From Octopus vulgaris (Eukaryota): a DNA stretch of 64,000 nucleotides. Made by a program: the position numbers and the translations under genes. A model generated the notes under the pieces. That model was not told the origin of the DNA, searched no databases, and saw only the letters and a list, made by a program, of their open reading frames with translations. This document shows positions 24,112-61,770 of this stretch, in pieces. The stretch covers positions 12,710,001 to 12,774,000 of the forward strand of contig OX597838.1 in NCBI GenBank assembly GCA_951406725.2, read 5' to 3'. Position 1 is the stretch's first letter. The number at the start of each line of letters is the position of its first letter.

Positions 24112-24362
24112 ACCAGAGTAAACACATAAATGTGAAACAAGGTGGAAAAAAGAGTACTCAATTACCAGGGGTAGAGTAATATGCTTTATTTAAAAGCAGC
24201 AGAAATTCAACAAAACCTGTTACTCGGAGTTTCATGTTCCTGTTCGTCGGACAATTTTTCTTAAAAAAATTTTTTTTTTTAAACAAAAACTGTCCGAACG
24301 GGAATGTGAAACTCAGAGTAACAGGTTTTGTTGAATTTCTGCTGCTTTTAAATAAAGTATAT
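24112..24362. mobile_element. Penelope-like inverted pseudo-LTR remnant with a hammerhead-like motif on each arm
   Basis: ~80-bp inverted arms (24179-24259, 24285-24362). Each reads stem I-CCGA(CGA)-stem II-GAAA-CTCnGAG-TA-stem I, then AATAAA. Flanked by (TA)n; homolog at 61540-61770. Confidence 0.65.
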
Positions 24363-25003
24363 ATATATATAAATATATATATCACATAAAAAGCTCCCAG
24401 TACACATTGTAGGACAGGAAAAACAGCCAGCTGTAGAAACTGTGTCAAAGCAGACAGAGCTTGGCACAGTCCCCTGGCTTGCCAGTTCCTGTGAAACCAT
24501 CCATTCCATGCCAGCATGGATGGTGGGCATTAAATGATGGTTATAAGTGTGTGTGTGTGTGTGTGTGCATGTATGTAATTATCATTTAACATCCACTTTT
24601 CCATTATTTTTGGATGGAAATTGGTTGAGATACGTTTTTCTACTTCTGGATGTTCCTATAATAATAATGTAAAGCTTGCTGCATACGTATTTTGAAAAAC
24701 CTTGTATCCACTTATCTGTTCTTCCAGTACATGAAACTAATGGTGACCGGCTTGCAGTTGATGTTCCTTACTAGTGTAACTGTCTCCTCACTTAGTTCAC
24801 ACTCTTCAGCTCCGTTCACTCTTCTTTTTTTTTTTTTTTTTGTTTACATCTCTCCCTCTCTCTCTACCACTATGCTTGTCTCACTTTTTCTTACTCTCTA
24901 TCTCTTCATGTTTCTTTCTGCTACCCTCCACATCTCTCTCTCTCTCTCCAGGCCTTCGTCTCTTTGTTTTCATATCTCCTCTTTCTCTTTCCTCCCTACT
25001 TCC

Positions 25004-25039
<36 letters not shown>

Positions 25040-25758
25040 CCTTTCACATTTTTCTCTGTGCTGTTCACCCCCCTCTCATTTTGTACATGTCCTTATACTC
25101 CTCCCACTCTCATCCACTAGTTGTCTGACTGGCTGTGCTTGTGTGTGTGTGTGTGTGTGTATGTATTTCTACTGTCAGGTAAAATGTGACATGCCATTGT
25201 TACTGAGAAAATATACAGCTGTTGTCTGTGTGTGTGTGTGTGTGCGTGTGTGCGTGTATGTATGTTAAATTACAAACAAGGACTTTGAGGCTTTCCAAAA
25301 AAAAATTCTGTAATTAAGCTGATTATATAAAACGAGTTAGACTACATAATATAATAGACAGTATATTTAGCAGCACACCTACACATGCATTTAACAAACA
25401 GTCACACACACAGAATTATAATGACTAAAACTGAACTCTATTATATCAAGTAATTTATATTGTGTATTGCACTGGCAGAACCATTAGAGTGTCTGGAGAA
25501 AATACGTTGGACTTTATGTCCAGAGTTCAAATTGTGTCGTCATCTTGTACGTTTTGCTTTGTAGAGCTGGTGATATAAAAAAAATAGCAGTTTGGGTATT
25601 GCGATCAGTGTAATCACTAATTCCTTTGTCCCAAGAATCTGGCTTTTTGCCTGTTGAGAAACTGGTGCCGGTAGAGTGTTCTTGTGAGCTGGCATTCTGA
25701 GGAGTTAGGACGGGGCAAAATGGGTTTTGTGCCAGTTCTTGTAGAGAAGATGGCCCCA

Positions 25759-26010
25759 ATCATCATCATCATCATCATCGTTTAGCGTCCGCTTTCCATG
25801 CTGGCATGGGTTGGACGGTTCAGCTGGGGTCTGGGAAGCCAGAAGGCTGCACCAGGCCCAGTCTCATCTGGCAATGTTTCTTACGGCTGGATGCCCTTCT
25901 TAACACACCAACCACTCCATGAGTGTAGTGGGTGCTTTTTACGTGCCACCGGCACAGGTGCCAGACGAGGCTGGCAAACGGCCACGATCGGATGGTGCTT
26001 TTGACGTGCC
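25759..26010 (-). mobile_element. Family C copy
   Basis: (CAT)n plus family C consensus. Confidence 0.87.
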
Positions 26011-27470
26011 TGGGTAAATGATTTCAGTAGGCCTGTGGGAGTGAGAAACTTGAAATTTGTCAGCTTCCGGATGCAGAAACTACAGTGATGGTGGTGGTGG
26101 TGGTGGTGGTAATAGTAGTAGTAGTAATAGTGTAAGAGAAACTGATAGGATAGGTCTTCTCAGTCAGGCTTGACCTGGGGCTAAATAACTACTACAACAG
26201 CAACCATCCAGCAGATGTCATCAGCTTGCATTGTGTGTTCTTACTAATGCAGCTGCCTCTTTTTGTTGCACATCAGCTTCTGCCTTGAATGTGCAGCTTC
26301 TGTCTTTTGTGTAAATCTTTACAACACGTCCAATGGAACATTCCTCTCCAGACCTCCCCCTTACTCTCCTGCACTCTTTCGTGCACGCACACACACACAC
26401 ACTTTTGGTCATACATCACATATTATTTCATATTGTCTTCATACAGATTTTTTCCTTTTTTTTTAAGCCCCTAATTTAGCCTTGATTGAGCAGGAGAGAC
26501 CTCTGTTGAAGGTCATTCCAATTATAGCCTTCGTGTCTTGCTTTATCTCCAATTACATAAGCAGTAGGATGTGATGTGAGGAAGATTTGGCTGCTATTTC
26601 TAGCAGGCAACTGCTGCCTCCCCCAAAAAACACCCCCATCCTGTGATTTTAAGTTAAAACCATCTTCCCTTGCCTCCAACAAATGTACAAACCTCAAAAT
26701 TTGAAACATGTCCCACGGCTCAATGCTGACACTGTAGTAGCAATGGCTGTACATCATCCTTTTTATCTCCTCCTCCTACCTCTCTCCTTTCTCACTATCC
26801 CTCTCTCGTGTTAACCCCCTCTCTTTCTCTTTTCACATCCTCTTTCATGCACTTTCTCTCTATCCAACTCCCCCCTCTCCAGTACTAATCCACAAATATA
26901 TCAAGGGGAAACTGGGACAGTTACCATCCTTCACTGATGTAACATCTGTTTTTTTCCAAGGCCATCATCATCATCATCACCACAATCACTCTTTACATGC
27001 AGTCTGTTACCATTATTAACTGTGCATCTGCACCTGCCGAGGTGCATGTCAGTGGAACCATGTGCACTCTTGTATTTCTACCTGTAGACTAGCCAGGGAG
27101 GAAAGGTCATTGCTTATGACCTTTAAAGGTCACACTGCCGAGCAGTGAGGTTGATGTGGCCAACACCCAGCTGAACATGTGCAGTATAAATGCCTGTAGT
27201 CACCAGATGGATGCACACACAAGAAGGCCAAGAATGCTTCAAATGTGCACAGCAGGGACCCCCGCAAAAGACATCTAAAATGTGTGCTGTGCTGTTAATC
27301 TGGGAGGCACACCATTAGGCATACTATTCTAAACAGTGTGCCAACCACAAACCGTACAGTGGCATTTAACAAATGGGAACATACGTGCAGACGTGGCTGT
27401 GTGGTTAAGAAGCTCTCTTTACAACCACATGATGTTGGGTTAGGTCCCACTGCGCAGTACCTTGGGGAAG

Positions 27471-27688
27471 TCATCATCATCGTCATCGTTTAACGTCTGC
27501 TTTCCATGCTAGCATGGGTTGGACGGTTCAACTGGGGTCTTGGAAGCCAGAAGGCTGCACCAGGCCCAGTCAGACCTGGCGGAGTTTCTACAGCTGGATG
27601 CCCTTCCTAACGCCAACCACTCCGTGAGTGTAGTGGGTGCTTTTTATGTGCCACCAACACAGGTGCCAGACGAGGCTGGCGAACGGCA
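27471..27688 (-). mobile_element. Family C copy inserted in an older SINE A
   Basis: Family A head at 27385-27470 resumes at ~27690 (ctgaccaatgccttgtgagtg). Confidence 0.85.
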
Positions 27689-28236
27689 GCTGACCAATGC
27701 CTTGTGAGTGAATTTGGTTAATGGAAACTGCGTGGAAGCCATCGTGTGCGTGTATAGCTGTCGGCCTTGCAATGTGTTTGTTGTAGTTTTAGAACAATAC
27801 CACTCCACCGGCTGAGTGGACTGGAGCAATATGGAATGAAGTGTTTTTCTCAAGAACACAACACACCGCTGGTCCGGCAATTGAAACCACAATCTTATGA
27901 TCATGAGCATAACACCCTAACCACCAAGCCACGCATATTTACACACACACACACATACATATGTATGTGTGTCTTTGTCCCCATCGCTGTTTGACAGCCA
28001 GTGTTTACATGGAAAAACAAGTCTGTCTGTGTATTGCGCTGCTCATAGTTCAGTTATGACAACAGTAAGAGCAAAACTTTAAAACAAATGAATGTACTAG
28101 GATCAAAATGACTAAAAATCCTTCAAACCAGTAACTCCAGCATGGCCACTGTCTTCTGACTGACATGTAAAAGAAAATTCTAAGCAATAGACTTAGAATC
28201 AGTAGAGCATTGATCAAAATGATTTGCAGTATCTAT

Positions 28237-28451
28237 TTAACCCTTTCGTTACTGTATTTATTTTGAGATGCTCTGTGTTTCTTTCAATTATTTTAAATAT
28301 AACAAAGAATTTAGTTATCATTCAGCTAGTGTTAGAAACATAAATTGTGACTAAGGTTTGGTGGAAGATTTTAATTCAAAACTTATGAAAACAGGACATT
28401 TGTACTCAGAACCAGAGCCGGTTTCAGCCGGGTTTGTAACGAAATGGTTAA
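28237..28451 (+). mobile_element. TTAA-MITE family E (piggyBac-type ends)
   Basis: TTAA-CCCTTTCGTTAC...GTAACGAAATGG-TTAA; copies at 48073, 50775 and 57441. Confidence 0.87.
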
Positions 28452-29210
28452 GGCAGTAAGTTGACAGGATTCTTAGTATGCCAGGCAAAATGTTTAGCAG
28501 CAGTCCATCTGTTTTACCATTCTGAGTTCAGTCCTGTCACGGTCAACTTTACCTTTCATCCTTTTGGGTTGATAAAAGTACCAGACAAGTACTGGGGTTG
28601 ATACAATCAACTGTCTCCTCTAAATTTCAGGTCTTTTGTGTCTGTTAGAAACCATTATTATCCTAGTTGTAAAGGCAGTGAGCTGGTGGAATTGGTAGCA
28701 TGCCAGACAGAATGTTTAGCAGCATTCTGTCCATCTTTACATTCTGAGTTCAAATTCTGCTGAGGTCAACTTCACCTTTCATCTTTTCAGGGTCTTTAAA
28801 ATGAGTATCAGTTGAGCACTGGGGTTAACGTAATCAACCTGCACTCCCTTCAAAATTGCTGGCCTGGTGCCAAAATTTGCAACCAGTATTTGTTTACAGC
28901 CCTTTATATTGTGAGTTCAAATCTTAAGTGGGTCGGCTTTGATTTGCTTTCATCCTTCCAAGCTTCTTCATCTTAACATTCACTTTCTCATGCCCTCATG
29001 GGTCGGATAAATTTGTTGATGCAGATTTTTTACAGCTGGATGCCCATCCTGTTGCCAACCCTCACTTGTTTCCAAGCAAGGTAATATTTCCCCATGACTG
29101 AATGTGTTTATCACAGAAGGTAGGAAATGGACACTGCTTGCAATGACAGGGACACTTGTTTACAGCTCTCATACAATGTCAAAGCAAGGAGACACAATAC
29201 AAGACGATAC

Positions 29211-29424
29211 CTATTTCTTTACTACCCACAAGGGGATAAACACAGAGAGGACAGACAAACGGACTAAGTCAATTATATCGAACCCAGTGCGTAACTGGTA
29301 CTTATTTAATCGACCTCGAAAGGATGAAAGGCAAAGTCGACCTCGGCGGAATTTGAACTCAGAACGTAACGGCAGACGAAATACAGCTAAGCATTTCACC
29401 CGTTGTGTTAACATTTCTGCCAGA
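29211..29424 (-). mobile_element. SINE family B copy
   Basis: Reverse complement of family B; older B copies also at ~28452-28660 and ~28672-28890. Confidence 0.87.
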
Positions 29425-29946
29425 ACTGAAAGGGAGTGGGTGTAGGTTTGTTTTGCTCCCTTAATTTTCTCTGAATCTGTGGAATTGTGCCTCAGAAATC
29501 AATATTATTGAGGGTGAATGAAATGGTCGGCCGTTTGAATGGGTTAAATATCCTACATTCCAAGCGGATGCTGTCCTCTGCACCTCTCATCTTTAATGTC
29601 TTGGCCAGATGGAGACTTTAAGTTGATGAAATTCCTCAGAATGAACTTTGGACTGTGAAATACAGTGTATCCACCCTCACTCACACACATTCATTTACTC
29701 TCTCTTTCTCACACACACACTCTCTCTCCCTCTTGCGTTCTGGTACTCTCACAATCTCCCTTCCTCTCTCTCAGGCACACTCACACAGTCAGGCTTGCAC
29801 ACATACAGACACACATTGGTTTATTTATGTTAACCAGCTGTAGGTAGTCTGTCGGTAAATAAACCTTTCTTGTCTTCTGTAATATCATCACTGACAATGA
29901 GGGCCAGCTGATTCTTGAGCAGTCAGCCAGTTTTCTGTTATATATA

Positions 29947-29992
<46 letters not shown>

Positions 29993-30457
29993 TATATAAA
30001 CAGAAAACTAGCTAACTACTCAAATGTGTGCCTATGTCCATGAATGTGCATGTGTAAGTACATATATATATATATATATGCCAAATAACATGATCATGAT
30101 AAACTATAAATATTTGGGGGAAAGTATCACTCAAGTACAATATCTTCTGGCTGATCTTTAATTCATGCTAATTCCATAACTTACAAAGAAGGACCAGCAC
30201 TATCTGAAACGCATGAAGCAAATCAAATAGAGCAGTCTCAACGTAAACACATTTATCACGAGTGGAGAATTACCCTTCATCGGTCACCAGTTGAATCCCA
30301 TTGTTGTTTAAACACCTCAAGGCAGGGTTTACTTGTGATGGTGCCAAACAAGCATTAAAGAAAAATGCAGTTTAACACTGTTTGGTAATAAATATACAAA
30401 AATTTGTCCTTGGAATATATCATCATATGTATATATCATCACTATCATCATCGTTGT

Positions 30458-30684
30458 TTAACCCTTTAGTGTTCAGATTATTCTATCAAACATAATGCTT
30501 ATTGATTCACATTGATTTGAATTAATCATGCATTATTTCATATCTTCAAGATCTTGATGGTGTAATTACTTTATGTAGAATAACATTGTAGGGTAGGTGT
30601 GAGGGCCTGGATCTGGTCAGTTTGAACATAAAACAGATTAAATATTTTAGCCGGATATGGCTGGTTTAAATACTAAAGGGTTAA
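30458..30684 (-). mobile_element. TTAA-MITE family F
   Basis: TTAACCCTTTAGT...ACTAAAGGGTTAA perfect 13-bp inverted ends including TTAA. Confidence 0.87.
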
Positions 30685-30720
30685 CATTAGCATGGGCTGG
30701 CATGAGTTGGATGGTTTGAC

Positions 30721-30951
30721 GGGCATGTGGTGTAGTGGTTAAGAGCGTGGGCTACTAACCCCAAGATTCAGAGTTCGATTCCTGCCAGTGACCTGACTAG
30801 TAATAAAAACAACATTGAAAAATACATTAGGAATGAGAACCTATGTTCGAAATTTCCCCAAGGCACTTGATGAAGGCTGAAGGGTATATCAGCTGAAACT
30901 TGTTAACAACAAACAAGATAAGGACAACTATCCGTCACATGTAAATAATGT
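30721..30951 (+). mobile_element. tRNA-headed SINE with a degenerate hammerhead-like 3' region
   Basis: A box TGGTGTAGTGG (30728-30738), anticodon-like arm tggg-ctactaa-ccc, B box GAGTTCGATTCC (30771-30782); TTGATGA-a-GGCTGA..TCAGCT-GAAAC at 30867-30899. Confidence 0.7.
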
Positions 30952-31625
30952 TCCAATTGTCCTCTAAGCTATATGTCTCCAACTCTTCCTGCTTTTCGTC
31001 AGAAGCTCTGTTAGGAAATCTCTGAATTTCTGTCTGTCTGCTGGGTCTTTGAGCTTCCATAGTCTTCTTTTCCAGATTGGTTTATTCCTCCGGGTCTTTC
31101 TGGCTAACTAGTAACCTATGTAGGGCTGTACACTCTTCATCTAGCAAAGACTTTGCATTTGCCAGTATCTGTCTGTCTTGTTGCCTGGTGAGGAGGTAGT
31201 TAGTTAGTTAGTTAATTTTGGCTCAAAAAGCAAAAAGCAAGGCCATGTAGGGGGACATGGAGTTATGTACAGGGTGGTGTTCATGTAAAGAGTTCAGGCC
31301 ACTTGTGGTCAAGGGAGACTTTGAACCAAGCGGTCGTCGGCATCTTCACCATCTCATCTGGCAGCTTATTCCACGGATCTGCAACCCGGACGGAGAAAGC
31401 CCCTCTCCTTCGATTGAGATGAAATCGTCGCAGATAGAGCTTTTCGGAATGACCCCGCAGCCGACGCTCTGGAGCATTGCAGTCCCCCACCTTGTCTGAT
31501 AAGGGATTAGGTGGGTGGCTGGTTTTCTGAAGTTAGTATTGCAGATCATGGGATCATTTGCATCACAGAACTCCAGTAGCCTGGTTCCCTCCTCATTCCT
31601 GGAGCCAAAACCAAATACGCAAACA
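30952..31625 (-). mobile_element. RTE-clade LINE fragment (AP-endonuclease C-terminal half and linker), split by a CR1 insertion
   Basis: Minus translation GFGSRNEEGTRLLEFCDANDPMICNTNFRKPATHLIPYQ // YLLTRQQDR...EECTALHRLLVS // KRRLWKLKDP. Confidence 0.88.
31199..31490 (-). mobile_element. CR1-clade LINE 3' end with (TAAC)n tail
   Basis: LRGHSEKL...RRGAFSVRVADPWNKLPDEMV...FKVSLD matches the CR1 ORF2 C-terminus; short 3' UTR and tandem tail. Confidence 0.88.
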
Positions 31626-31987
31626 TGAAGAAACAGCATTAACTATCAAAGTCTAGCATGAACTTGGCAAGTGTGTAAGTACAGGGCTGACCATTTCAGC
31701 ACTAATTCACATGAAACTATTCCTGTTAAGATATTCAAATTCAGCTCATTATCTGAAATTTCTTTAAAGATATCACTAAACTATTAGTATAATTCTTTGT
31801 TTTAACAATTAAAAGAGTAATTATAATCTTGTTGCGTAAAAATTGGGGTCATGTAAGAGTTAAGTGTCGTGTAGGGGTATCTATATTTTGAAGAATTTGT
31901 TTCTTTGAGGGCAACAAATTTGGAAAAAGCAACAGGACATTTATGCCTTTTTTGATGCAAACCCACTTGAGACTGCCTTTGCTTCTA

Positions 31988-32152
31988 GGTGCAGGAGTGA
32001 CTGTGTGGTAAGTAGCTTGTTTACCAACCACATGGTTCCGGGTTCAGTCCCACTGCGTGGCACTTTGGGCAAGTGTCTTCTACTCTAGCCTCGGGCCGAC
32101 CAAAGCCTTGTGAGTGGATTTGGTAGACGGAAACTGAAAGAAGCCCGTCGTA

Positions 32153-32194
<42 letters not shown>

Positions 32195-32405
32195 TGTATG
32201 TGTGTCTGTGTTTGTCCCCCTAGCATTGCTTGACAACCGATGCTGGTGTGTCTATGTCCCCGTCACTTAGCGGTTCGGCAAAAGAGACCGATAGAATAAG
32301 TACTGGGCTTACAAAGAATAAGTCCCGGGGTCAAGTAGCTCGACTAAAGGCGGTGCTCCAGCATGGCCGCAGTCAAATGACTGAAACAAGTAAAATAAAA
32401 AGAAA
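31988..32405 (+). mobile_element. SINE family A copy
   Basis: Full-length match. Confidence 0.92.
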
Positions 32406-33196
32406 AAAAAAGCTGTTTGTTTTAAATTGTTTTCAGTTTACATTAAAAACCCTTCGTTATAAATTAATGTAGGAGTCTCTTCCTGTTTAATTGTATTGAA
32501 ACTTATCAATGTTGTAATCCGTCATGGATTAAGGGAGAAACATTACAATTAATAAAACCGATTTCTGTAGTGTGGTCAGATAATCCACAACTGAAGCTGG
32601 TGGCCAAAGAGGCTTAGGGATTAACAAACTAAAGAAACATTGATGTTTGAGGATTAAATTTTTCCATTAGAAATTAGAACTCTTTGGTGCAATTTTGATA
32701 GGAAACCCTGTATATATGCGTTTGTAATACTTTTTTACGTTTGGCTTAACAGCCCTTCTTGTCTTGTTATTTTCCTTGCCCTGTCTTTTACTGCTTATGT
32801 TTTGTACTGTTGTTACTGTCCTGTTTTTGTTACCATTTTTACCCCTCTGCAAAAAGATCTCAAATTTTATTTGATTTGCTTTTCGCACGAAGGAAAGTTT
32901 CTTATCGAAGATACGTCTCGCCTTCACCTTCGAAACGTAGAGTAGATGAAACCATGGCGACTGAAGAAGGGGTGTTTTCCTTGTGTTATTTGTCCTGTAC
33001 TCTATTTTTTTGTTGTTTAAGAAAAATGTCCAGTTCCTTGGGTTTGTGTCTGTTTTCGTTTCTCATTGTGTTCAACGTTTTTTTGGTGTCCTGTACTCAT
33101 ATATGCGTGTATATATACATGTAGAGGTAGGTACGTACATATATGTATATATATATATGCATATGTTTTGTTTTTTAATATATATATATATATATA

Positions 33197-33488
33197 ACAC
33201 CATCCGAGCGTGGCCGTCTGCCAGCCTCGTCTGGCACCTGTGTCGGTGGCACATAAAAACACCATCCAAGCGTGGCCGTCTGCCAGCCTCGTCTGGCACC
33301 TGTATCGGTGGCACATAAAATCACCCACTACACTCTCGGAGTGGTTGGCGTTAGGAAGGGCATCCAGCTGTAGAAACACTGCCAGATCTGACTGGCCTGG
33401 TGCAGCCTTCTGGCTTCCCAGACCCCAGTTGAACCGTCCAACCCATGCTAGCATGGAAAGCGGACGTTAAACGATGATGATGATGATG
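33197..33488 (+). mobile_element. Family C copy with two VNTR units
   Basis: Two caccatcc.agcgtggccgtctgccagcctcgtctggcacctgt units, then the 3' consensus and (GAT)n. Confidence 0.87.
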
Positions 33489-40784: not shown

Positions 40785-40816
<32 letters not shown>

Positions 40817-40817
40817 A

Positions 40818-40989: not shown

Positions 40990-41020
<31 letters not shown>

Positions 41021-41237: not shown

Positions 41238-41240
<3 letters not shown>
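40818..41240 (+). mobile_element. SINE family A copy
   Basis: Full-length match. Confidence 0.92.
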
Positions 41241-41277
<37 letters not shown>

Positions 41278-41553: not shown

Positions 41554-42200
41554 CTCACTCACACATCACTCGGAAAGGCATAAACATTGACTGCTCACTC
41601 ACAACATCAGTTCCCCTCCGACCCTTCCTATCTATGAATCCGGGGTTTTTGAAACCATGTAAAACAAAATGAACCAAAAACCAAAAAAAAAAAGACAAAA
41701 AAATAGTATCCAGATTTCTTTCGTGTGTGTGTGTGTGTGTGTGTGGTAGTAGGGGATGCAGAATGAAGCTGTGGGAAATTCTGTCTGATGTAAGTAAAGG
41801 AAATGGTTCCAGCTGGGAATCCAAATGGGGGCCATAGTTTTCAGCAGGCTGAGAACTAAGTGCCATTCTATGATGTAAAAGTTTCTACTGACACCATTGT
41901 CAGTGACAGAGTAACCTTGTAAATAATATTAATAATGGTTTAGTTATTGTCTAATACAGTACTGTTGTCATTTTTTAGAAATTATTTTATCTCACATACA
42001 CGCATATCTATATATATATATACATATATATATATATAATATTTTTTTAATTTTCCATACACCCATTTTTATTAAAATTTACCTTCAATTTAGCATTCTG
42101 CCTTTTTTAATTTTTCCTCGTCTATATATACTGTCCTTCTCGCCATGATAGGTTGTTAGCTTCTACACGCATTTTTTTCTCTCCTTGTTTTTTCTGTGTA

Positions 42201-42238
42201 TCTTTCTGTCGAAGAGCATAGGCTCGAAACATAAAAGA
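42201..42238 (+). ncRNA. Minimal type-I hammerhead-like motif within a Penelope-like remnant (~42110-42336)
   Basis: TCTTT-CTGTCGA-a-GAGC-atag-GCTC-GAAAC-ATA-AAAGA: perfect 5-bp stem I and 4-bp stem II; core differs at A6 and in stem III. Confidence 0.55.
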
Positions 42239-42334
42239 CTTGTTCTATTTCTATTCCTGAGCGCCATACTAATACATTTGTTTGTTTGTACTCCATCTGC
42301 CTTCGTCTTTTGTTTATTTTCGTAAACCTTCCCG

Positions 42335-42375
<41 letters not shown>

Positions 42376-42544: not shown

Positions 42545-42560
42545 CATACATACAAACAAT

Positions 42561-42673
42561 AATATGTTACTTTACTCGGTAGTCAAGATAAAACTCTGAG
42601 TTTCAGATGCCGAAGTGGAAATCCACAACACCATCTCTTCAGTTATCTTGACTATCGAGTAATGTAACATATT
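42561..42673 (-). ncRNA. Hammerhead-like motif closed by a 31-bp stem I
   Basis: Minus strand: 31-nt arm-CTGAAGA-GATG..GTGG attt CCAC..CATC-T-GAAA-CTCAGAG-TT-31-nt complementary arm (29/31 Watson-Crick). Confidence 0.65.
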
Positions 42674-42763
42674 ACATTTACAGATAAATTTCCTCTATTT
42701 ACATAATATTGAGGTCTCTTTCTTTCTTTTGTTATCTTACCGTTTTTACCATTATATATATAT

Positions 42764-43166
42764 ATTTTACTCATTTACTTGTTTCAGTCATTTGACTGCG
42801 GCCATGCTGGAGCACCGCCTTTAGTCGAGCAACTCGACCCCGGGACTTATTCTTTTTGTAAGCCCAGTACTTATTCTGTCGGTCTCTTATGCCGAACCGC
42901 TAAGTAACGGGGACGTAAACACACCAGCATCGGTTGTCAAGCAATGCTAGGGGAACAAACACAGACACACAAACACACATATATATATATATATACATAT
43001 ATACGACAGGCTTCTTTCAGTTTCCGTCTACCAAATCCACTCACAAGGCATTGGTCGGCCCGGGGCTATAGTAGAAGACACTTGCCCAAGATGCCACGCA
43101 GTGGGACTGAACCCGGAACCATGTGGTTGGTTAGCAAGCTACTTACCACACAGCCACTCCTGCGCC
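42764..43166 (-). mobile_element. SINE family A copy
   Basis: Full-length reverse-complement match. Confidence 0.92.
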
Positions 43167-43610
43167 TATATATATATATATAAATGTTTATGAATTTGTT
43201 TTGCAAGATTCCTGATGTGAAATCGTGTGTTTGATACTGATATTCTTTGGGGTGGTCATTTTGTTTTTTCTTGCCAAATAAACATTGCACACTATATAAT
43301 TCATCTTTCACTTGTTTGTTATCGTTCTCATTTTATCTTATGTCCATTGTCTGGAAATCTTCCATCACACAACACATCTGTGACCACTTGAGTAACTCTT
43401 CCATCCATGTGTTTCCTCCCATTCTGATTAGTCCATTCTATCTCTATGACGTGTATCCTTTATCTGTATGTGCGTGCATGTGCATGCGCATCTGTTTTTT
43501 ATGTATTTTGTGTGTGTGTGTGTGTGTGTATTTGGTTTTGCTTACTATATTATTTGTATCTGTGCCCTTTTTATAGTTTGTTTTTCATTTATTTACTTAT
43601 TTCTATTATA

Positions 43611-48597: not shown

Positions 48598-48642
<45 letters not shown>

Positions 48643-50660: not shown

Positions 50661-50774
50661 TGGATAATACTGTTCCACATATACTCATTACATTGGTTTG
50701 GGAGGATTTGACAGGGACTTGGCTGAGGGAACCTAAAAGCAGTTGCTTATTGGCTCCCTCATCAACTTGCAGTT

Positions 50775-51003
50775 TTAACCCTTTCGATACCAACCCGGCT
50801 GAAACCGCCTCTGGCTCTGTAGTATAAATGTCTTGTTTTCATAAGTTTTGAATTAAAATCTTCCACCAAACCTTAGTCACAATTTATGTTCCTTACACCA
50901 GCTGAATGATAACTAAGATATTTTACTAAATTCTTAGTTAATTTAAAATTAATTGAAAGAAACACAAAGCATCTCAAAATAAATACAGTAACGAAAGGGT
51001 TAT
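50775..51003 (-). mobile_element. TTAA-MITE family E, ~130 bp upstream of the exon acceptor
   Basis: TTAACCCTTTCGATAC...GTAACGAAAGGGTTAT. Confidence 0.87.
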
Positions 51004-51134
51004 TCTGTTGTACATTTTAGTGTATGGTTGTGTTGATGGACTTTTTTTATTTTTTATTTTTTCCCCAGTACAGTTACTCTTTCTCAAAATCCTTAATTAT
51101 GCGAATGCTAATTTTTTTTTCTTTTTTGTTGCAG

Positions 51135-53588
51135 ATGTGAACAAAAAATCGACAACTGACTCTGCATCAGAAAAAGAGGATTTAAACGGTAACTCATTGG
51201 TCATCAGCAAGATACAATCAAACACAACTACTGATGCTGGACGAAATCAAGAGTTACAAACAGAGGGAATGGGGAAAGAACTGGACCAGAAGAGCTGCAA
51301 GCCAGCTGATTCGCAAGACTCTGCACAGAAGTCTCGCAAGGGCCGCAAAGGTCCTATAGTCTATGCTGAAGATATTCCAGATTATAGAGGAAAAGAGAAG
51401 ATAGAGGATCTCTTGAACTTCATTGGGAAAAGCCCAAACAATGACACTTTGAGCAAGGACAAAAAAAAGAAAAGTAAGAAAAAAGGCCTCCAAGGCCGTT
51501 CTTGCCGTTCGAGTGCAGAAAATAAGGATGAAAAAATCGAATTGTTGGAGTCTGATTCAACAGATCTTTATCCAGCCAAATCTTCCTCTTTGGATAAAGT
51601 ATGTTGCAACTGCAATAACTCTGAGATTGATGACTGCCTCGGTGATGACAATGGTCAGGCTGATAATAGCATTGTTCTGAATCCGGAATATTCCTCTCCT
51701 AATTCTGCTGAGCCCTTTATTCTTGTGGAGAAGAAAAACAAGAAACGGTTGAATGCAAACCTGAACCGACCGAATAAATTTGCGCCCAAGTCCCCCTACC
51801 GAAACCGAAAGCTAAGCTCGTCAGTCATGCATCCCCACCAGCCTCACTGTAATGAAAAAACTGAGTTAGACTCTTCATATTCTGATTTAGAAGGTTCCTA
51901 TAAAGCACGTCGCAACTCAACTGGCAACGTCCACATGCAGATGTCTACGGTGCAAAGTATAACTACAGAGGATAGTGATAATGAAAGTTGGACATCTTTA
52001 CCGATTTCTCAGGTTTCTCAGGGAATCCAATTAATTAATGAAAATAGTTACCCAATTTCCTATGCGAAGATAGCTGCTTTGAGCTTGCCTTTGTCAAACT
52101 CTCAGTCATTGAATCGTAATGTCCCATGTTCTGTGTCTAAAACTGGAGAAAATGTTCCTGGGTGCAAAGAGACTAGTGCTGTTGTTAAAACCAACAGCAT
52201 CAGTGTAATTAAAGACAATCAAGTTAGGCGTACCTCAAATGGCAATGAGCAGAGTTGTTGTGGAAGTGACATAAGCACTGAGAATAGTGATAATAGTGCT
52301 AATTATTTATTGAAAGACAATGATAATTATTTAGATAGGAGGCATTCGGTTGGGGAGTGCATAGCTGACGGTACTTCAGTGAAAGAGCCCAAGGCTACTA
52401 CCTCCACTCCAAAGAACCTACATCATGACAAGGGCCAAAAAGAGAATAAAAATGAGACCAAGGAACAAGATATTTCATTTTGTGATCATAAAACATCATC
52501 TATATATAAAAATATAGTTTCTGGTCTGTGTCTTAGCTCAACAGAAAACGGGGAGGAGAATTTTAATTTGTCACTTAATAATCTAAATAAAGCCAAGAAC
52601 TTTAATAAAAGCAAACTAGTTTCTCATCACTCCCTTGTACAACAACAACAGCACCAACAACAACAGCAGCAGCAGTGTAATATTTACGTTAATAACAGTA
52701 ATACAAAATGTAATATGACAGATATTCTTGCTGTGAAATTTATCAATCCAAGAGATAAGAAGCACAATGACAAACAATATAAGATAACTTTTGGTTTTTT
52801 CTATGATCCAGACAATAAAAATGGTAGAAATACGACTGGAAGTGACACCATTATTGATGGTAGCAGCTGTCCTCTCTCTTCAGAACTTCCTACTTCATTG
52901 CCTGCCGAGCCCTTTTTGCCCAAGCAGGTATCAAACAATAAAGATGAAGACCACAAGAAGTTAGAGGACAGAGCTGCAAAACCTGGGTGTAAAGAAGGCA
53001 ACGGTGTTTTGAAATCATCTCATATTAATAATAATAATAATAATAATAAAACAAATCCTGGTGACGAGGTTACGGGCAAAACCCCTCAACTTCCCGACGC
53101 AAACTGTGATTCAACTGAGAAGACTGTAAAAAATACTGAAGCTGTCAAATGTGTTAGCAAATTAAATGGAGTTGTTGTTCCCACCAACAAAAATTCTTTA
53201 GAAACCCATTCACTTCGAACAAATGAAACACCCGAGAGTGCCGCCATTTCAACTAGCTCCTCTCTACCAAACACAAGCAATTCCAAAACTGTGAGTCCCA
53301 CTGCAGTCGATGACGAAAGACCCCACGGTTTGTCCAACATTCAGGGAAACAACAACAACCTCCACCACCATCACACAAGCAATAAAAAAACAATCCCCGA
53401 CAGTAAATGCGGGGGAAATAACGGGGACAGTACAGTAAGGTCCTTGCAGGATAGCTTACAATTCATAGCCCTTTCGTATGGGGATAAAATCGAAAAGGAC
53501 AATAAACAAAAGGTGATACATTTCCGGAGTGATGTGGCTGATACCCAGCTCTTCAACCAACAGGAAATTTTATCCTATCTTAGCAATG
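51135..53588 (+). CDS. Large internal coding exon (818 codons) of an uncharacterised S/N/K-rich, mostly disordered protein
   Basis: Stop-free 2.6-kb ORF in unique sequence; branch-like gctaat, T-tract and GCAG acceptor ending at 51134; donor G|GTAAAT at 53589; phase 1 at both ends; poly-Q and poly-N runs. Confidence 0.88.
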
Positions 53589-53776
53589 GTAAATATAGGT
53601 TTTTTTCTTTTTTTTTAAACTTTTTTGTCTCTGTTTCTCATAAATAACCAAATTATTTTACTATTCAGATTGTCAGAATAAATGTTACCTTGATTAACCC
53701 TTTTCGTATATTAACCTGCCTCCCAGACTGCTTCTAGTTCTAAGGCAGAAAAACATCTGCTTTAAATTTTCAGCAT

Positions 53777-54005
53777 TTATCCCTTTAGTGTTCGCATTAT
53801 TCTACCAAAATTAATCCTTTTTCATCCACTTTGTTTTGAACTAATCATGCATTATCTTGTAGCTTTGAGATTTCGATGAGGTAGCTGTTAATTTTTAAAA
53901 CGATATTGTAGGGTTGGTGTGAGAGACCAGATCTGGCCAGTTTGAACATAAAACAGGCAGAATACTTCTGGCCGGATATGGCCGGTTTAAATGCTAAAGG
54001 GTTAA
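53777..54005 (-). mobile_element. TTAA-MITE family F nested in an older family F copy (53762-54150)
   Basis: ttatCCCTTTAG...CTAAAGGGttaa; flanks rejoin as cagcat-TTAA-accagccaaatctggcc, the start of family F. Confidence 0.82.
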
Positions 54006-54272
54006 ACCAGCCAAATCTGGCCAAAGTAATCTGTTTTATGTTAAACTGGTCAGATCTAGCTTCTCACACCTACCCTATAATGTCATTCTAATCATAAACA
54101 ATCACATCGTCAAAGCTATGAAATAATGCATGATTAATTCAAACTGTAAAAGATCAGGTAAAAATTTCAAATGGGTGAATGTCTTCCACTCAATCTTTGA
54201 ATTCTTTTTTTTTTTCAGTGGAAGTTCATTTTGTTGCGAACGTTCAGATCAGATCAGGTCAAATCCTTCCAT

Positions 54273-54309
<37 letters not shown>

Positions 54310-55050
54310 TAGATGTTTGGATAATGCATCAATCCTGTCACTCTCACTCACCTGTTTGAGTGAAGACAAATTACTCAGTTATTTAAAAAAAAAAAAAACC
54401 TAATTCTGATTTATCTTTGCCCACCACTGGTTCAATGAAATATATTTTAGTGTTTTGCTTTGTTTTTTGTTTTTTTGCCCTTCTCATTGTTATCACCTGT
54501 TAACGAGCTTATACAATTTTGTGTGTGTGTGTTTATATATAAAATGCACACATGTGTGCATATACACATATTCTTGCAGGTGTAGCTGTGTGATTAAGCT
54601 TATTTCCCAACCATGTGGTCTTGGGTTCAATCCTACTGCACAGTACCTTGATGAAGTGTCTTCTTCTATAGCCCCAATCCAGCCAAAACCTTGTGAGTGG
54701 ATTTGGTTGGTGGAAACTGAAAGAAGCCTGTCACGTGTGTTTGGGTGTACACCCTTGTGAAGACATGTGATGCTGGTAAATGAGCATCATCATCATCATA
54801 CAAGCAAGGTTGTTTGTTTCCAATCTTCTGTGAAAATCGATCTGGTCATGGTGAAATATCCTAGTTGGAAACAAACCTATTGACAAAAGTCTATAACAAA
54901 TGGAATGACAAACCTTTTATGGAGAACATTTTTGTAGCCAGAAGTGTAAGCACTTTCATTATACAGTATGAAAACTTCCTTCCAAAAAGTTCATGTCAAT
55001 CTCTTTTGTAAGATATTTTTCAAGAAAATCCTTTAAATATTGTAACAACA

Positions 55051-55259
55051 TCTCTTTACTCTCTACTCTTTTTCTTGTTTCAGTCATTTGACTGCGGCCA
55101 TGCTGGAGCACCGCCTTTAGTCGAGCAACTCGACCCCGGGACTTATTCTTTTGTAAGCCCAGTACTTATTCTATCGGTCTCTTTTGCCGAACCGCTAAGT
55201 GACGGGGACGTAAACACTCCAGCATCGGTTGTCAAGCAATGCTAGGGGGACAAACACAT

Positions 55260-55291
<32 letters not shown>

Positions 55292-55473
55292 TTATATATA
55301 CACATATATATGACAGGCTTCTTTCAGTTTCCGTCTACCAAATCCACTCACAAGGCATTGGTTGGCCCGGGGCTATAGTAGAAGACACTTGCCCAAGGTG
55401 CCACGCAGTGGGACTGAACCCGGAATCATGTGGTTGGTTAGCAAGCTACTTACCACACATCCACTCCTGCGCC
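55051..55473 (-). mobile_element. SINE family A copy
   Basis: Full-length reverse-complement match. Confidence 0.92.
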
Positions 55474-56266
55474 TATTATTTTTTTACAAAAACTTAAAAT
55501 GAGTGTGTGTGTGTAAATACACACAAATACAGCTCTGCATACCTATCAGCAAATGTGGTCAGTTGCCAGAGTCATTAAGGCATCAGATAGAATGTGTAAA
55601 TATTTTCCTGAGGTTCACTTAGCCTTTCATCGTTTCAAGGTTGATAAAAAAAGAAAAAAAACAGTACCAACCTACTACAGGTGTAGTCCTCTCCCTCTGG
55701 CCATCATAGCCTGAATATTTCACTAAACAGTAGGTAGAATGGCCAAGACAGAGCATCAGTGTCTACTCACAGTTACATCCATGGATATTTATAGCCATTA
55801 GTAGAAGCATGGTACATGCTACTAAGTCTTGCTACGGGTTCAGTCCCACTATGTGGCACCTTTGGCAAGTGTCTACTATTATAGATCTGGGCTAACCAAA
55901 ACTTTGTGGGCGGATTTGATACACAGAAAGTGAAAGAAACCCATGGTGTGTGTGTGTGTGTGTGTACATTTTCTATGTTGGCTTATGTTTAGACGGGTTG
56001 ACATATTCTGGTGAGCCATGGGACTACATTATGTTCCATGTCAGCTTTGACGTGGTTTCTACAGCTGGATGCATTTCTTAATGCCAACCACTTTTGCACT
56101 GGGTGCTTTTTTTTTTTCATGCCAACAGCACTGGTGAGGTTGCTGAGCAACTCGCAAAACAAGAAAAAAGCCCTCGACTAAGTGGAAGGACTATTTGAAA
56201 TGTAGAGCGAGATGGTTTTTATGCCAGGGACAAATATAGGTGTCTTCCTATAGAGAAGATATGTGA

Positions 56267-56463
56267 CTATCTATCTATCTATCCGCTCAGTCGAAGTCGA
56301 CTCTTGGTTACTCGATGGATCAGTGTCCTCCAGTCAGTTCTATCCTGGGCCGCTTCTTTCAGATTGGCTATGTCCATTCCGGTATCACTCTTGATGGTGT
56401 CAAGCCAGCGGGTTCTTGGTCGGCCTCTTCCTCTCTTGCCACTGACCATTCCAAGCATGATGT
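56267..56463 (-). mobile_element. RTE-BovB-like LINE 3' end with (ATAG)n tail
   Basis: Minus translation IMLGMVSGKRGRGRPRTRWLDTIKSDTGMDIANLKEAAQDRTDWRTLIHRVTKSRLRLSG* follows the BovB-type C-terminus. Confidence 0.87.
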
Positions 56464-56545
56464 GTAGCTATCCTGCATTATATAAGGGTGAGAGTAGCTG
56501 GAAAGTGTGTCTCCTTGTTTCAAAGTGTCACTTATTCAAGGAGCA

Positions 56546-56745
56546 TCATTCATCGTTTAGCGTCCGCTTTCCATGCTGGCAGGGGTTAGACGGTTCAACT
56601 GGGGTCTGGGAAGCCAGAAGGCTGCACCAGGCCCAGTCCGATCTGGCAATGTTTCTACGGCTGGATGCCCTTCCTAACGCCAACCACTCCGTGAGTGTAG
56701 TGGGTGCTTTTTACGTGCCACCAGCACAGGTGCCAAACGAGGCTG
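56546..56745 (-). mobile_element. Family C copy
   Basis: Consensus match. Confidence 0.85.
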
Positions 56746-57440
56746 CATTAATTTTCAATATTCTGGCCATCAGGAAATATTACCTTGTTTGGAAACGGGT
56801 ATGAGTTGTTGACAGGAAGTGCATCCAGCTGTAGAAAATATGCAACAATAAATTCTGTCCAATTCGTGCAAACAGAAAAATGAACATTAAACCAATGGTG
56901 ATGATGATGATGATGATGGTGATATAATCAGTTGAAATTATAGTGTGCAGCAATCACCGCAGAGTGGTGATTCAGTCAGTATTATCATCATCATATTTGA
57001 CATTCCTTTCGCAGTACTACTATGGAATGAAAAAAAAAAAACCTGCATAACTGCACCAACACACCTCATGTATCCCTATTATTTGTGTAGCTTTCTGTGC
57101 AGTTTGTTAAGTCCCAGGTCAGTTCTTACTGGCTTGACCTGTAATAAAAGGAAAGTGTTCTAGACGTGACAAGCTGGGTTATTGTTTGTTTTGAGACATT
57201 GTATATCTAGCACTGTATTATTATCTAAGGTGTCCTTCCTTCCTGTAAAGAGAGTAGTAATGTGATTTGGCATTTTGTGCTATTTCTAGAAGTAAATTTT
57301 TATGATTGAAGTGGACTGCTTGCTTGTTTCAATCATTGGATTGCAGCCATGCTGAGATACTGCTTTGAAGAATTTATTCAAATAAATCGACCCCAAGAAT
57401 AAGTAGACTTTACAATAAGTCCATTTATTCTAGACTTGTC

Positions 57441-57656
57441 TTAACCCTTTCGTTACCAACCTGGCTGAAACCGGCTCTGGCTCTGAGTACAAAAGTCTTG
57501 TTTGAATAAGTTTTGAATTAAAATCTTCCACCAAACCTTAGTCACAATTTATGTTCCAAACACTAGCTTAATGATAACTAAGATATTTTACTAAATTCTT
57601 TGTTGTATCTAAAATAATTGAGAGAAACACAGCATCTCAAAATAAATACAGTAACA
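57441..57656 (-). mobile_element. TTAA-MITE family E with right end clipped
   Basis: TTAACCCTTTCGTTACC start; ends at gtaaca. Confidence 0.83.
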
Positions 57657-57970
57657 GTCTAGAATATTCTTTCTTAAAATATTTTAGACTTTAAGTCTAA
57701 TAATTCCCATCTTTGGCAAAGATAAAATAATTATGCCAAAGTGTTATTCTATCAACTCTTTTGCTAAACCTGCAGGGTTGTAAATAAACCAGTACCAGGT
57801 GTCACTGGACATGGACACACACACACACACACATACATTGTGACTTATCTAGATCACATGCTGGTTTAATGAGTCATGCTCATATCCATATTGTTTTTGG
57901 CGGCTTGAGGAGTCACCAGGTGAAGTAAATGAATTATAAACATTGGTGAATGGTAGTAATAGTAGTTTAA

Positions 57971-58204
57971 GGCGGCAAGCTGGCGGAAACGTTATCACGC
58001 CGGGCGAAATGCTTAGCTGTATTACGCCTGCCGTTACGTTCTGAGTTCGAATTTTGCCGAGGTCGGCTTTGCCTTTCATCCTTTCGTGCGCGATAAATTA
58101 AGTACCAGTTACGCACTGGGGTCGACATAATCGACTTAATCCGTTTGTCGGTCCTTGTTTGTCCTCTCTCTGTTTAGCCCCTTGTGGGTAGTAAAGAAAT
58201 AGGT
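57971..58204 (+). mobile_element. SINE family B copy
   Basis: Full-length match. Confidence 0.88.
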
Positions 58205-59246
58205 ATAAGGATGTTGTTGGTTATCTATTTGGTTGGAGCTTTTTTTTTTTTTTGTCTGTCTTCTAACTCAACACTCATATGTACACACATATATACACAC
58301 AACAGGCCTTGGTCAGCCCAGAGTTATAGAAGACGTTTGCCCAAGATGCCAACTGTGATGGCAATCTATTGTTGTGAGGGTGTTGAAGAATTTTGCTTAG
58401 AAGTCTGAAAATAGATGATGGATTCTCAGTGTTATATAATAATGTAATGTTAAAACTGCAAAATTATCTGGTCACCAGCTTTAGCACAAAGACTGCAGTG
58501 CTACTGTTTTTGTTTCAGTATATTTTGGTATTATTTTTTACGTTGATGTTTGAAATATATTAACATGAAATTTTGCTGGAAGGAAGGTTCTACTTTGTGA
58601 TTTTAAAACAGTTTGTATCATAAATCAGGGGTAGCTTCAGACAGCTTTTGAATAAGGACTCAATGAGTGAGATAAGGAAAAAACAGTTTTTTTTCAATGT
58701 TGTCAATGTGAAAATTTAACTTTATTTATTTATTTTTTTTTTTTTTTTTTTTTTTTCTGAAAGAAAGATTTAATGCTTCAGGAAGGGTGATTCTTCACCA
58801 TTAAAAAAGCTAATACATGAATTACAAGCGTGGAGGTGGGGGGGGGGGATAGATATATATATATGTGAGAAATAGCGGACACCTGATCATCACTGTCCAT
58901 CTCCTTGGGAATACCTTTAATTCATTCTCGCTCTCTCTTAAACGTAGGTAGGTATGTAACCCCACTACCCCAACCTTTTCCCCCTCATACTTTAGCCAGC
59001 ATCTAACATATGAACACTGCATCCTCCTTCTCTGGGTTTGTTAACTTGCAAGCTACACAGGGACCGCATTAGTGTCAGTGGTCCAAAAATAGCACCCAAT
59101 ACGCACTATAGTGGTTGGCATTAGGAAGGGTATCCAGCTATAGAAATCCTGACAAAACAGACATTTGAATATGATGCAGTCTTTCATTCATTGGATCCTT
59201 GTCAAATCATCCAACCTATGCCAGCATGGAATACAGACATTAAATG

Positions 59247-59282
<36 letters not shown>

Positions 59283-59425
59283 CACTTTTGGAATGGTTAG
59301 CGTTAGGAAGGGCATCAAGCTGTAGAAACATTGCTAGATCAGATTGGAGCTTGGTGCAGTGCCCAGTCAAACTGTCCAACCCATGCCAGCATGGAAAGCG
59401 GACATTGAATGATGATGATGATATA

Positions 59426-59470
59426 CTAGAAGAGATACCTGTCCTTGCTCGGGATTAAAATGGCATAGTT
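59426..59470 (-). mobile_element. Isolated Helitron 3' terminus
   Basis: Minus strand: hairpin tcccgagcaaggacaggt then CTAG|T; shares cttgctcgggattaaaatggcatagttt with 21295-21320. Confidence 0.6.
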
Positions 59471-59989
59471 TTTTTTTTAGTTTTAATTGTTTCAATTGTG
59501 ACTGTGGCCATTCTGGAGCACCGCCTTTGGTCAAAAAAATCGACTACAGTATTTATTTTTTGTAAGCCTAATACTTATTCTATCAGTGTCTTTTGTTGAA
59601 ACGCTGTTATGGGAACATAAACACAGCAACATCAGTTGTCAAGCAATGGTTGGGTACAAACACACACACACATTATACAAACATAAATACATATTGAAAG
59701 TAATAGAAATGAAACTAATATATTCAGATACATAATGAAAGTGAAATTGAAACCACATAATAGTGAAAGTATTAATAGAGATGCTATTGTTTCACTTTTG
59801 ACATGTGATACTGAAACAGTGTAAGAGATAAGAGATTGCTCTGGGCTTGCATTAGGTGTGAAGTCAAAGATTTTTTTGGCCCATGCCACTGCATGGACCC
59901 TAAATAAGGCATATGTAAAATTTGAATGGAATCTGTTGGGTAGTTCTCAAGTTTTAGTGATGCTCGACACATTCTCAGTTTTATATATA

Positions 59990-60470
59990 TCTACTACATA
60001 TGTGGAAACTCGGTGTGTTTGTTTGTGGCATTATTAGCTAACTCCTACATCGTTTTATTGATTTTGATGAAACTTGACACATGAGTAGAACTCGTGTCTG
60101 GAAACCTCGTGATGTATTTAGATTGTTGAAAAAAATCAATAATACGGCCCCTGGAAGGGACCTTTATATCTACCTCATATAACTATTTTTTTTTAAACAC
60201 CCAAGGGAAATAACTCATAGCACCTGTACAATATTTTTTTTTAAACACGGGAAATGACCCATTTCATTGTTTATGTTTGATTACTTTGAATATTGATTTT
60301 TTTTTTTGTGTGTCCTATTTCTAATTTTTGCAAACAATATCACTTTTATACTTTATTTAACATGTGAGTAGAATTCATGTCTGGAAATCTCATGACATAC
60401 TTAGATTGTTGAAAAAAATCGATAATAGGGCCCTTCTGATGGATCCTATCTATTTTACATGTTATTAATA
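59990..60470 (+). mobile_element. Possible non-autonomous Helitron-like element with internal ~70-bp direct repeat
   Basis: A|TCTACTACATA start; tgagtagaa.tc.tgtctggaaa..tagattgttgaaaaaaatc.ataat repeated at ~60080 and ~60362. Confidence 0.4.
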
Positions 60471-60559
60471 TTTTATTTAACCCTTTAGTGTTTAGATTTA
60501 CTCTGTTAAATGTAATACTTTTTCACTCAAATTGTTTTGAATTAATCATGCATTATCTA

Positions 60560-60600
<41 letters not shown>

Positions 60601-61239
60601 TAAAACAACCAGCACTGTCCACAAGTTTCAGTTGCTTAAAAGCTAAAGCTAGAATCTCTTTATAAGGTACCTCAAACTGCTAGAAATAGCAGCCTAATTT
60701 TCCTAAAAATCACACTGCCATTTTGAAGAAGAAACGTTTTGAATGCGATCTTAGATGTACTGTCTGAAACTAAGATGGAATTGTCATAGTTGGAATGCTG
60801 TTGGTCCTACTAGGTCTACTGGATCAGAGATGATAGGAAGCTGAATAACAACTGCTCTTTTCAAGACAAATTGTCTCTACGTTGATGAACAACTTGCTTG
60901 AAATAGAATCCAAATCATACAACACTAACTTAAAAAGGAAAGATATAAATATATATAAACATTTCTCTGTGTCATATAGATGTATAGATTTCTTATAAAT
61001 AGACAGGTGTGTGTGTGTGTACATATATATATATATATATTTACTCCTCCAGCTCTGCCACATGCCACTTTTAACTTAATACTGGTTTCAATATTTGGCA
61101 CAAGGGCAGCCGTTTTGGTAGACAAAAACTGAAAGAGGCCTGTCATGAGTGTTTGTCCCTTGACAATTGGTGATGGTTTGTTTGCATTCCCCGATACCTA
61201 GTAGTTTGACAAAAGAAACTGATAGAATAAGTACCAGGT

Positions 61240-61456
61240 TTAACCCTTAACTATTCAAACCATCCACATGCAGCCAAAATATTCTGTTTTATGTTCAAAG
61301 CAGTCAGATCCAGCCCCTTACAACTACCTTACGATGTCTGACCAAAAATAAACAACCACATTATGAAAATCTCCAAGCTACTAACGTATTAATTCAAAGC
61401 AATGTGAATAAATAAGCATTACATTTGACAGAATAATCTGAACGCTAAAGGGTTAG
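61240..61456 (+). mobile_element. TTAA-MITE family F
   Basis: ttaaccctt...gctaaagggttag. Confidence 0.78.
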
Positions 61457-61539
61457 AAAAAGTATATATACTGGGATCGATTCATTTGACTAGTCCAATG
61501 ACTGAAGCAAGTGAATGAGACACGCACACACACACACAA

Positions 61540-61770
61540 GTGAGCACATAAGTGCAAAATAAGGTGGAAGAAAAATAGTACTCAAATACCAAAGGTAGAG
61601 CAATGTACTTTTTATTAAAGCTGCAAAATTATCGCAGAGCTGTTACTCAGTTTCATATTCCCATTCATTGGACTGTTGTGTTAAACCTACAACTGTTCGA
61701 CGAACTGGAATTTGAAATTCTAAGTAACAGTTCTGTGATAATTTTGCAGCTTTAATAAAAAGTATATATA
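61540..61770. mobile_element. Second, more decayed Penelope-like inverted pseudo-LTR remnant with hammerhead-like arms
   Basis: Homologous to 24112-24362; plus arm AACTGT-TCGACGA-actggaattt-GAAA-ttctaag-TA-ACAGTT then AATAAA. Confidence 0.6.

Follow-up and report, generated by a model that had tools for sequence, protein, structure and literature searches.

Hammerhead motifs at an Octopus vulgaris locus belong to truncated 3' ends of Hydra-, Neptune- and Poseidon-type Penelope-like elements

Background

A 64,000-nt stretch of the Octopus vulgaris genome (assembly GCA_951406725.2, contig OX597838.1, positions 12710001-12774000; hereafter the window), made up chiefly of microsatellites and short repeats, holds seven motifs that resemble hammerhead ribozymes, and thereby raises the question of what kind of element carries them. 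An earlier note, based on the letters of the window alone, attributed them to four unrelated non-coding elements, seen as separate non-autonomous retrozyme families moved in trans. On searching the whole genome (2.8 Gb, 227 contigs) we arrive at another answer: the motifs are real and their biology is known, since they belong to truncated ends of Hydra-, Neptune- and Poseidon-type Penelope-like elements (PLEs). The five elements concerned (E1 to E5) are very probably 5'-truncated 3' ends of four protein-coding PLE families, each with the minimal type-I hammerhead of its family, and were likely produced by a reverse transcriptase (RT) that stopped after 80-250 bases.

Hammerheads conserved in four repeat families

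All seven motifs were confirmed: 24217-24254(-) and 24290-24324(+), on the inverted and direct arm of E1 (24112..24357); 30862-30904(+) in E2 (30719..30951, plus strand); 42201-42238(+) in E3 (42141..42335, plus strand); 42587-42647(-) in E4 (42558..42751, minus strand), which the earlier note had given as 42561-42673 by including a fold-back arm that lengthens stem I; and the decayed 61640-61675(-) and 61693-61730(+), on the inverted and direct arm of E5 (61539..61762). Of the four unrelated elements proposed, the number of families stands, while the insertions are five: E5 is an older, diverged relative of E1 (69% identity over 257 nt) that shares its tail and likewise consists of an inverted and a direct arm. 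Likewise, the reported proximity to (TA)n runs holds for E1, E3, E4 and E5, which are flanked by them, and fails for E2, which adjoins none.

Taken singly, the motifs of the window are weak. Our own type-I hammerhead descriptor, run on the window and on 20 shuffles with a strict core or one core mismatch, passes one of the seven (that of E4), the strict core giving no hits in any shuffle and the relaxed one 0.35 hits on average. A check against the Rfam hammerhead models, which the earlier note had put forward, found no hammerhead either among the matches listed for the window (150 of 208) or among the 17 matches in five other loci with well-preserved copies. These results, together with the palindromes that E1, E4 and E5 form between TA runs, would fit a chance resemblance within palindromic DNA elements akin to MITEs (miniature transposable elements with inverted repeats). 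We regard this as extremely unlikely: it is refuted by the linkage to open reading frames described below, since in each of the four families the motifs follow PLE frames at their 3' end; the motifs also match published Hydra hammerheads, and a genomic sample (sixty 10-kb stretches placed at round coordinates of contigs C1-C18, 600 kb in total) gave 18 descriptor hits (10 of them from two arrays), as against 2 and 1 in two shuffles.

At the family level the picture is firmer. Genome searches returned 4841 first-look candidates for E2, 1932 for E3, 3508 for E1 and 1146 for E4 (40 scored in each case), and alignments of 30 copies per family contain stem I, core, stem II, GAAA, palindromic stem III and the UH triplet in all four families. 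The hammerhead parts are kept across 30 to 60 genomic copies per family, with stems that barely vary within families; because all parts are thus conserved, the motifs are established, as far as comparative sequence goes, as minimal type-I hammerheads at the family level, and the identity first proposed for them is borne out there.

Each end continues from a PLE coding region

As the earlier note had remarked, no Penelope frame lies in the window (tblastn with pieces of five PLE proteins gave no hit at E 1e-3). Elsewhere in the genome, sequence continuity was seen from RT/GIY-YIG coding regions into each of the four ends, which lie directly downstream of them; the suspected kinship with Penelope is thereby upheld, and the description of the elements as non-coding falls away.

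For E1, a truncated 3' end of a first Hydra-clade family in which an inverted copy with tail and a direct copy lie between (TA)n runs, one locus (L251) has an endonuclease upstream of the end. A search with it (best 150 of 15512 candidates scored) returned several matches within open frames of 726-735 codons, and in 24 of 30 loci the endonuclease is followed downstream by the E1 end. Tandem copies (L295, L299) provide E1 with pseudo-long terminal repeats (pseudo-LTRs): in L295, two intact 726-codon frames are separated and flanked by three E1-type ends with a period of 3430 nt, and the unique 70-nt piece of E1, its tail (24112..24183, minus strand), is the stretch that follows one end and leads into the next unit. 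Two E4 loci (L255, L257) reach an endonuclease, L255 consisting of a tail, an inverted arm and a longer direct copy that extends into it; the ensuing search (best 149 of 25400 candidates scored) showed that in 16 of 20 loci the E4 motif follows downstream, with a frame of 717 codons that is 44% identical to the E1 protein. Both proteins have RWK, DKT and, near the C terminus, CxH, lack CCHH and have no cysteines within GIY-YIG; the CxCX5C linker is present in E4 and has its second cysteine replaced in the young E1 frame (CNF for CxC). By these motifs, rather than by a tree, the parents of E1 and E4 (families 1 and 2) are assigned to the Hydra clade; Nematis, considered for both, was dropped in view of the Hydra marks given in PMC8557442.

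The Hydra-clade PLEs described there (including Hydra-1_Obim and Hydra-2_aMil) share with the E1 and E4 parents a single frame of RT and C-terminal GIY-YIG, the RWK, DKT and CxH motifs, the lack of CC inside GIY-YIG and (TA)n targets. Their hammerheads (PMC8557442, File S2) have the same 4-bp-plus-1 palindromic stem III, often with an extra base before GAA, and that of Hydra-2_aMil has the same stem I as E1. On the other hand, the E1 and E4 proteins, compared by eye, resemble Hydra-1_Obim yet represent different families, their U4C cores are not among the Hydra rows of File S2, the young E1 frame reads CNF at the CxC of the CxCX5C linker, and the E1 tail measures ~70 nt as against the 30-40 described. 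Two further observations concern this clade: nine hits with identical 541-codon frames occur among clustered E4-type endonuclease matches on contig C31, which suggests a recent local expansion or a duplicated block, and L155:1823-3600 holds another Hydra-like endonuclease, in which an insert rich in Asn/Ser is present along with a hammerhead-like end whose stem II is very long.

E3 is a truncated end with a T-rich tail that stops at (TA)n. Four of its 29 other copies (the duplicated pair L049/L050 set aside) extend at least 300 nt into shared sequence, and a search with this extension gave 30 loci, of which 29 contain the E3 end and 12 have an RT or endonuclease upstream on the same strand. 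The parent carries a CX4CxxC linker and a CxxC inside GIY-YIG, and appears Neptune-like by the description in PMC8557442 (Nematis being possible, as the clade is set by motif, not tree). Neptune PLEs share with it these two marks, the (TA)n flank and a 3' minimal hammerhead with a 2-bp palindromic stem III, and differ from E3 in the core, which in E3 is A6U. The first 30 loci found with the Pfam GIY-YIG model (best 150 of 6136 candidates scored) proved to be other PLE families, which held E1- or E3-like copies only as separate insertions. Two further groups were seen: a young Neptune-like family (L151:406-4087, L152, L153), in which many frames of 781 codons are intact, a frame of 330-380 codons overlaps upstream and the 3' untranslated region (UTR) is long and repetitive, and a related PLE subfamily (L130, L131, L139, L145) in which a hammerhead-like end with a U3-A8 core lies 3' of GIY-YIG, just before (TA)n.

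E2 runs, in L003, into an endonuclease without linker finger, and a search with the latter (best 150 of 2843 candidates scored) showed that in 29 of 30 loci the endonuclease is followed downstream by a tRNA-like segment, the one at which E2 begins. Its parent was recovered as thumb and endonuclease only, and is by motif, not tree, Penelope/Poseidon-like. The longest open frame listed for the family has 378 codons; with no long frame, the family looks older and inactive. Penelope/Poseidon PLEs with minimal hammerheads (PMC4209133) agree with it in the missing linker finger, the CxC within the endonuclease, the canonical core, the extra base before stem II, G10.1-C11.1, the palindromic stem III, the inverted copies and the tail; E2 differs from them in the tRNA-like segment and (AAT)n that stand between stop codon and hammerhead.

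Truncated insertions rather than retrozymes

The structure of the copies is in line with aborted PLE insertion. An inverted truncated copy with a one-sided tail, typical of PLE insertions according to PMC8557442, occurs in E1, E2, E4 and E5 (in the window itself, in the insertions E1, E4 and E5), and inverted copies of E3 were met in L052 and L169. The extent of 5' truncation varies and the fold-back junctions differ between copies, the latter as expected of independent truncated insertions. In E4, the inverted arm with tail (42643-42751) is joined exactly at stem I, an arrangement found in 5 of 70 distinct motifs, the window's included. Predicted folds of the palindromic insertions are long hairpins (E1 -105, E4 -62, E5 -100 kcal/mol). 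Judging from published PLE biology, the endonuclease would nick the target DNA, the RT would copy the RNA from its 3' end and usually abort early, and a second copy would insert in inverted orientation, attached through a short run of complementary bases. The likely task of the hammerhead in the parents is to cleave long tandem transcripts into units, acting as a dimer through its palindromic stem III, for which self-duplexes of ~-7.5 kcal/mol (E1, E4) and -1.7 kcal/mol (E2, E3) are predicted; PMC4209133 proposes such dimeric cutting of precursor RNA and reports low activity in vitro.

The rival account, in which four independent families of non-autonomous retrozymes cleave themselves, form circles and are moved in trans, can point to the fact that short copies far outnumber long ones, to true tandem hammerhead arrays of ~359 nt in this genome (L351, L373), and to a preprint that derives animal retrozymes from PLE ends (bioRxiv 10.64898/2026.07.22.740005). 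We consider it highly improbable and largely refuted. Longer copies of every element run upstream into a PLE coding region, none of the five window elements sits in a tandem array (all are single insertions), the junctions vary from copy to copy, and the units of the two arrays have no match in the window. Non-LTR retrozymes (PMC7229834; bioRxiv 10.64898/2026.07.22.740005) share with the window elements the type-I hammerhead, a size of 150-450 nt and kinship with PLEs, yet are tandem and non-coding, whereas ours are single truncated ends of coding elements.

Retrozyme-type repeats do exist in the genome, outside the window. The array L351:2097-4926 consists of 359-nt units, 98% identical, with an inverted block and a canonical CUGACGA type-I hammerhead in each unit, and by its structure fits the definition of a non-LTR retrozyme, unlike the window elements. 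A second short array, tandem and inverted (L373:8466-9671, unit ~360 nt), has a hammerhead with a covariant U3-A8 core and relatives in L139, L391, L408 and L085.

Variant cores and ribozyme competence

The families differ in their catalytic cores. That of E2 is canonical (family core CUGAUGA; 23/31 and 13/18 pattern matches), as is that of the young, ORF-linked E1 motifs (CUGAUGA in 20 of 25). The older E1 subfamily, to which the window copy belongs, has CCGACGA (41/51 and 37/39 motifs). In E4, 16 of 20 ORF-linked motifs read CCGAAGA and 25 of 33 from another subfamily read CUGAAGA, the latter being the form in the window. In E3 (core CUGUCGA), position 6 is U in each of 30 copies, as counted from the alignment, pattern matches being loose. 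Both U4C and A6U are hence consensus states and not decay. The ascription of core changes to CpG decay, made in the earlier note, is retained for some lesions of individual copies and abandoned for these cores; on a U4C core, CpG decay shifts the sequence toward the canonical one.

Six of the seven window motifs bear lesions of their own: a 3-nt core deletion (24290), a stem II mismatch (24217), C3U and 3 nt missing at the cleavage triplet (E2), disruption of the stem III palindrome (E3, CG to CA) and general decay (both E5 arms). As these are damaged and the palindromic copies are predicted to fold into trapping hairpins, the window copies are likely inert as ribozymes; in E1 and E5, moreover, the two motifs lie on opposite strands, which leaves one per transcript. 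The triplet loss in E2 was considered as a mark of a short subfamily and rejected, the two arms of one insertion often differing in it (L012, L019, L020, L025, L026, L028).

Several observations weigh against the view that the elements are truncated ends of PLEs with working family ribozymes. The clades of all four families rest on motifs, not on trees; no intact full-length parent was found among the E3 loci examined, and those examined for E2 yielded neither an RT core nor an intact full-length copy. U4C (older E1, E4) and A6U (E3) affect positions whose substitution reduces activity (PMC3088659), and the young E1 subfamily has a stem II that is predicted not to fold on its own, so that the ribozymes of some families may be weak or inactive. 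The predicted cleavage site is rarely where a short copy starts (E1 1/144, E2 0/124, E3 0/76); in E4, 9 of 148 start there, a junction that stem I microhomology would equally give. Lastly, the 5' ends of E1 and E2 copies pile up at fixed points and are not evenly spread.

A further reading concerns ribozyme function and is compatible with truncated PLE ends, namely that in E3, E4 and older E1 the variant-core motifs have ceased to cleave and persist as a structural signal, either bound by the PLE protein or setting where the copying stops. This is possible, if rather doubtful. Its appeal lies in the fixation of variant cores, ORF-linked copies included (CCGAAGA and U6 at the frequencies given above for E4 and E3), in the clustering of E1 and E4 5' ends just upstream of stem I, and in PLE clades that thrive without hammerheads (PMC8557442). 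It has to contend with the retention of G5, G8, A9, GAAA, the UH triplet and all stems, and with the report that U4C, which lowers in vitro activity, still supports viroid infectivity (PMC3088659; the same source gives low activity for A6C).

A tRNA-like segment in the Poseidon-like family

In the E2 family, the stop codon of the Poseidon-like frame is followed by ~30 nt, the tRNA-like segment, (AAT)n and the hammerhead. The segment (30721..30795, plus strand) is degenerate and includes two motifs, conserved across E2 copies, which we take to be A-box-like (30728-30738) and B-box-like (30771-30781). Because this head lies just after a PLE frame, the notion of E2 as an independent short interspersed element (SINE) was dropped; among the window elements, only E2 keeps a possible non-autonomous, SINE-like reading, in which the segment would act as an internal RNA polymerase III (Pol III) promoter and form a SINE-like unit inside its autonomous partner. 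The product would be an RNA of ~230-280 nt (head, (AAT)n, hammerhead and PLE end), retrotransposed by the protein of the parent.

We tallied start sites in 94 non-redundant copies, leaving out 30 ORF-picked loci and three duplicates. The head is reached by 49; of these, 28 begin between -9 and +8 relative to its 5' edge, 16 within the head and only 5 farther upstream, and neither query boundary coincided with that edge. Along with the conserved box-like motifs, this distribution favours the Pol III unit, as does the lack of any run of four T in the last 240 nt of the E2 reference copy (7, 4 and 4 in the other three ends, one copy each); the summed contig depth of four runs guessed to be RNA also rises at the head, a weak sign, as such depth cannot rank parts. 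Against it, E1 has an equally sharp 5' pile-up without a promoter (88 of 144 within 15 nt, a partly query-biased figure, and 4 of 6 when the unbiased sample and the window are combined), the 5' edge of the head bears a small hairpin, 45 of the 94 copies have no head, and ARAGORN called no tRNA in the window and gave a few low-threshold calls in other E2 copies. Given the promoterless pile-up of E1, a stall or fold-back at the hairpin suffices for the E2 starts, and RT stalling explains them about as well as a Pol III unit does. We accordingly hold the latter as a tentative proposal, less likely true than not.

The nearest parallel are the Schistosoma Sm-alpha/Sj-alpha SINE-like elements (PMC6765202), in which a promoter likewise precedes a hammerhead in a short repeat; in E2 it is the 3' UTR of a coding PLE that contains the head, and Pol III use is putative. 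Our literature search, which had Repbase and Dfam outside its scope, found no report of a SINE served by a PLE or of a tRNA-like segment in a PLE end, and the available sections of PMC13282606, PMC6962438, PMC7229834 and PMC5786205 describe neither. The same search found no report of octopus PLE hammerheads; an octopus repeat paper leaves hammerheads unmentioned, and a squid paper gives 235 Rfam hits.

Abundance and genomic surroundings

By hand count, the 600-kb sample contains 24 ends of these families and near relatives, and the density of the window (5 in 64 kb) is within chance of it (P = 0.12). By extrapolation, ~100,000 short repeats genome-wide would be hammerhead-bearing PLE ends (95% range about 72,000-167,000).

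Some features of the surroundings may be recorded. E3, E4 and a common 420-nt repeat (42765-43190) are stacked in one (TA)n-rich patch, and single TA runs shared by different PLE ends occur also in L219, L319 and L208. A tandem unit of 62-63 nt is joined to a common short repeat at 9152-9575, 33196-33325 and 62453-62591, a similar unit forming a long array in L257. The single long host frame of the window (50957-53647, plus strand; 896 codons, Ser/Asn/Gln-rich) matches no Pfam family at E 0.01 and is probably a large host exon.

Significance

As it stands, this is an annotation result: some ~100,000 octopus repeats would be PLE ends whose hammerheads go undetected by Rfam, and their palindromic forms could pass for MITEs or microRNA hairpins. 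The parts of most note are the variant cores and the tRNA-like segment. We put forward, with considerable reserve, that an autonomous Poseidon-like PLE with a tRNA-derived Pol III promoter in its own pseudo-LTR emits a built-in hammerhead SINE served by a Penelope protein and not by that of a long interspersed element, and that PLE families with intact frames and recent activity rely on U4C or A6U hammerheads. Should the head of E2 prove functional as a Pol III promoter, it would illustrate one way in which a SINE is born inside its autonomous partner. With canonical and variant cores in sister subfamilies and with young tandem copies, these families are suited to a test of what PLE hammerheads do; and the intact-frame families on U4C/A6U cores, if they are indeed such, would be natural tests of whether PLE ribozymes need to cut.

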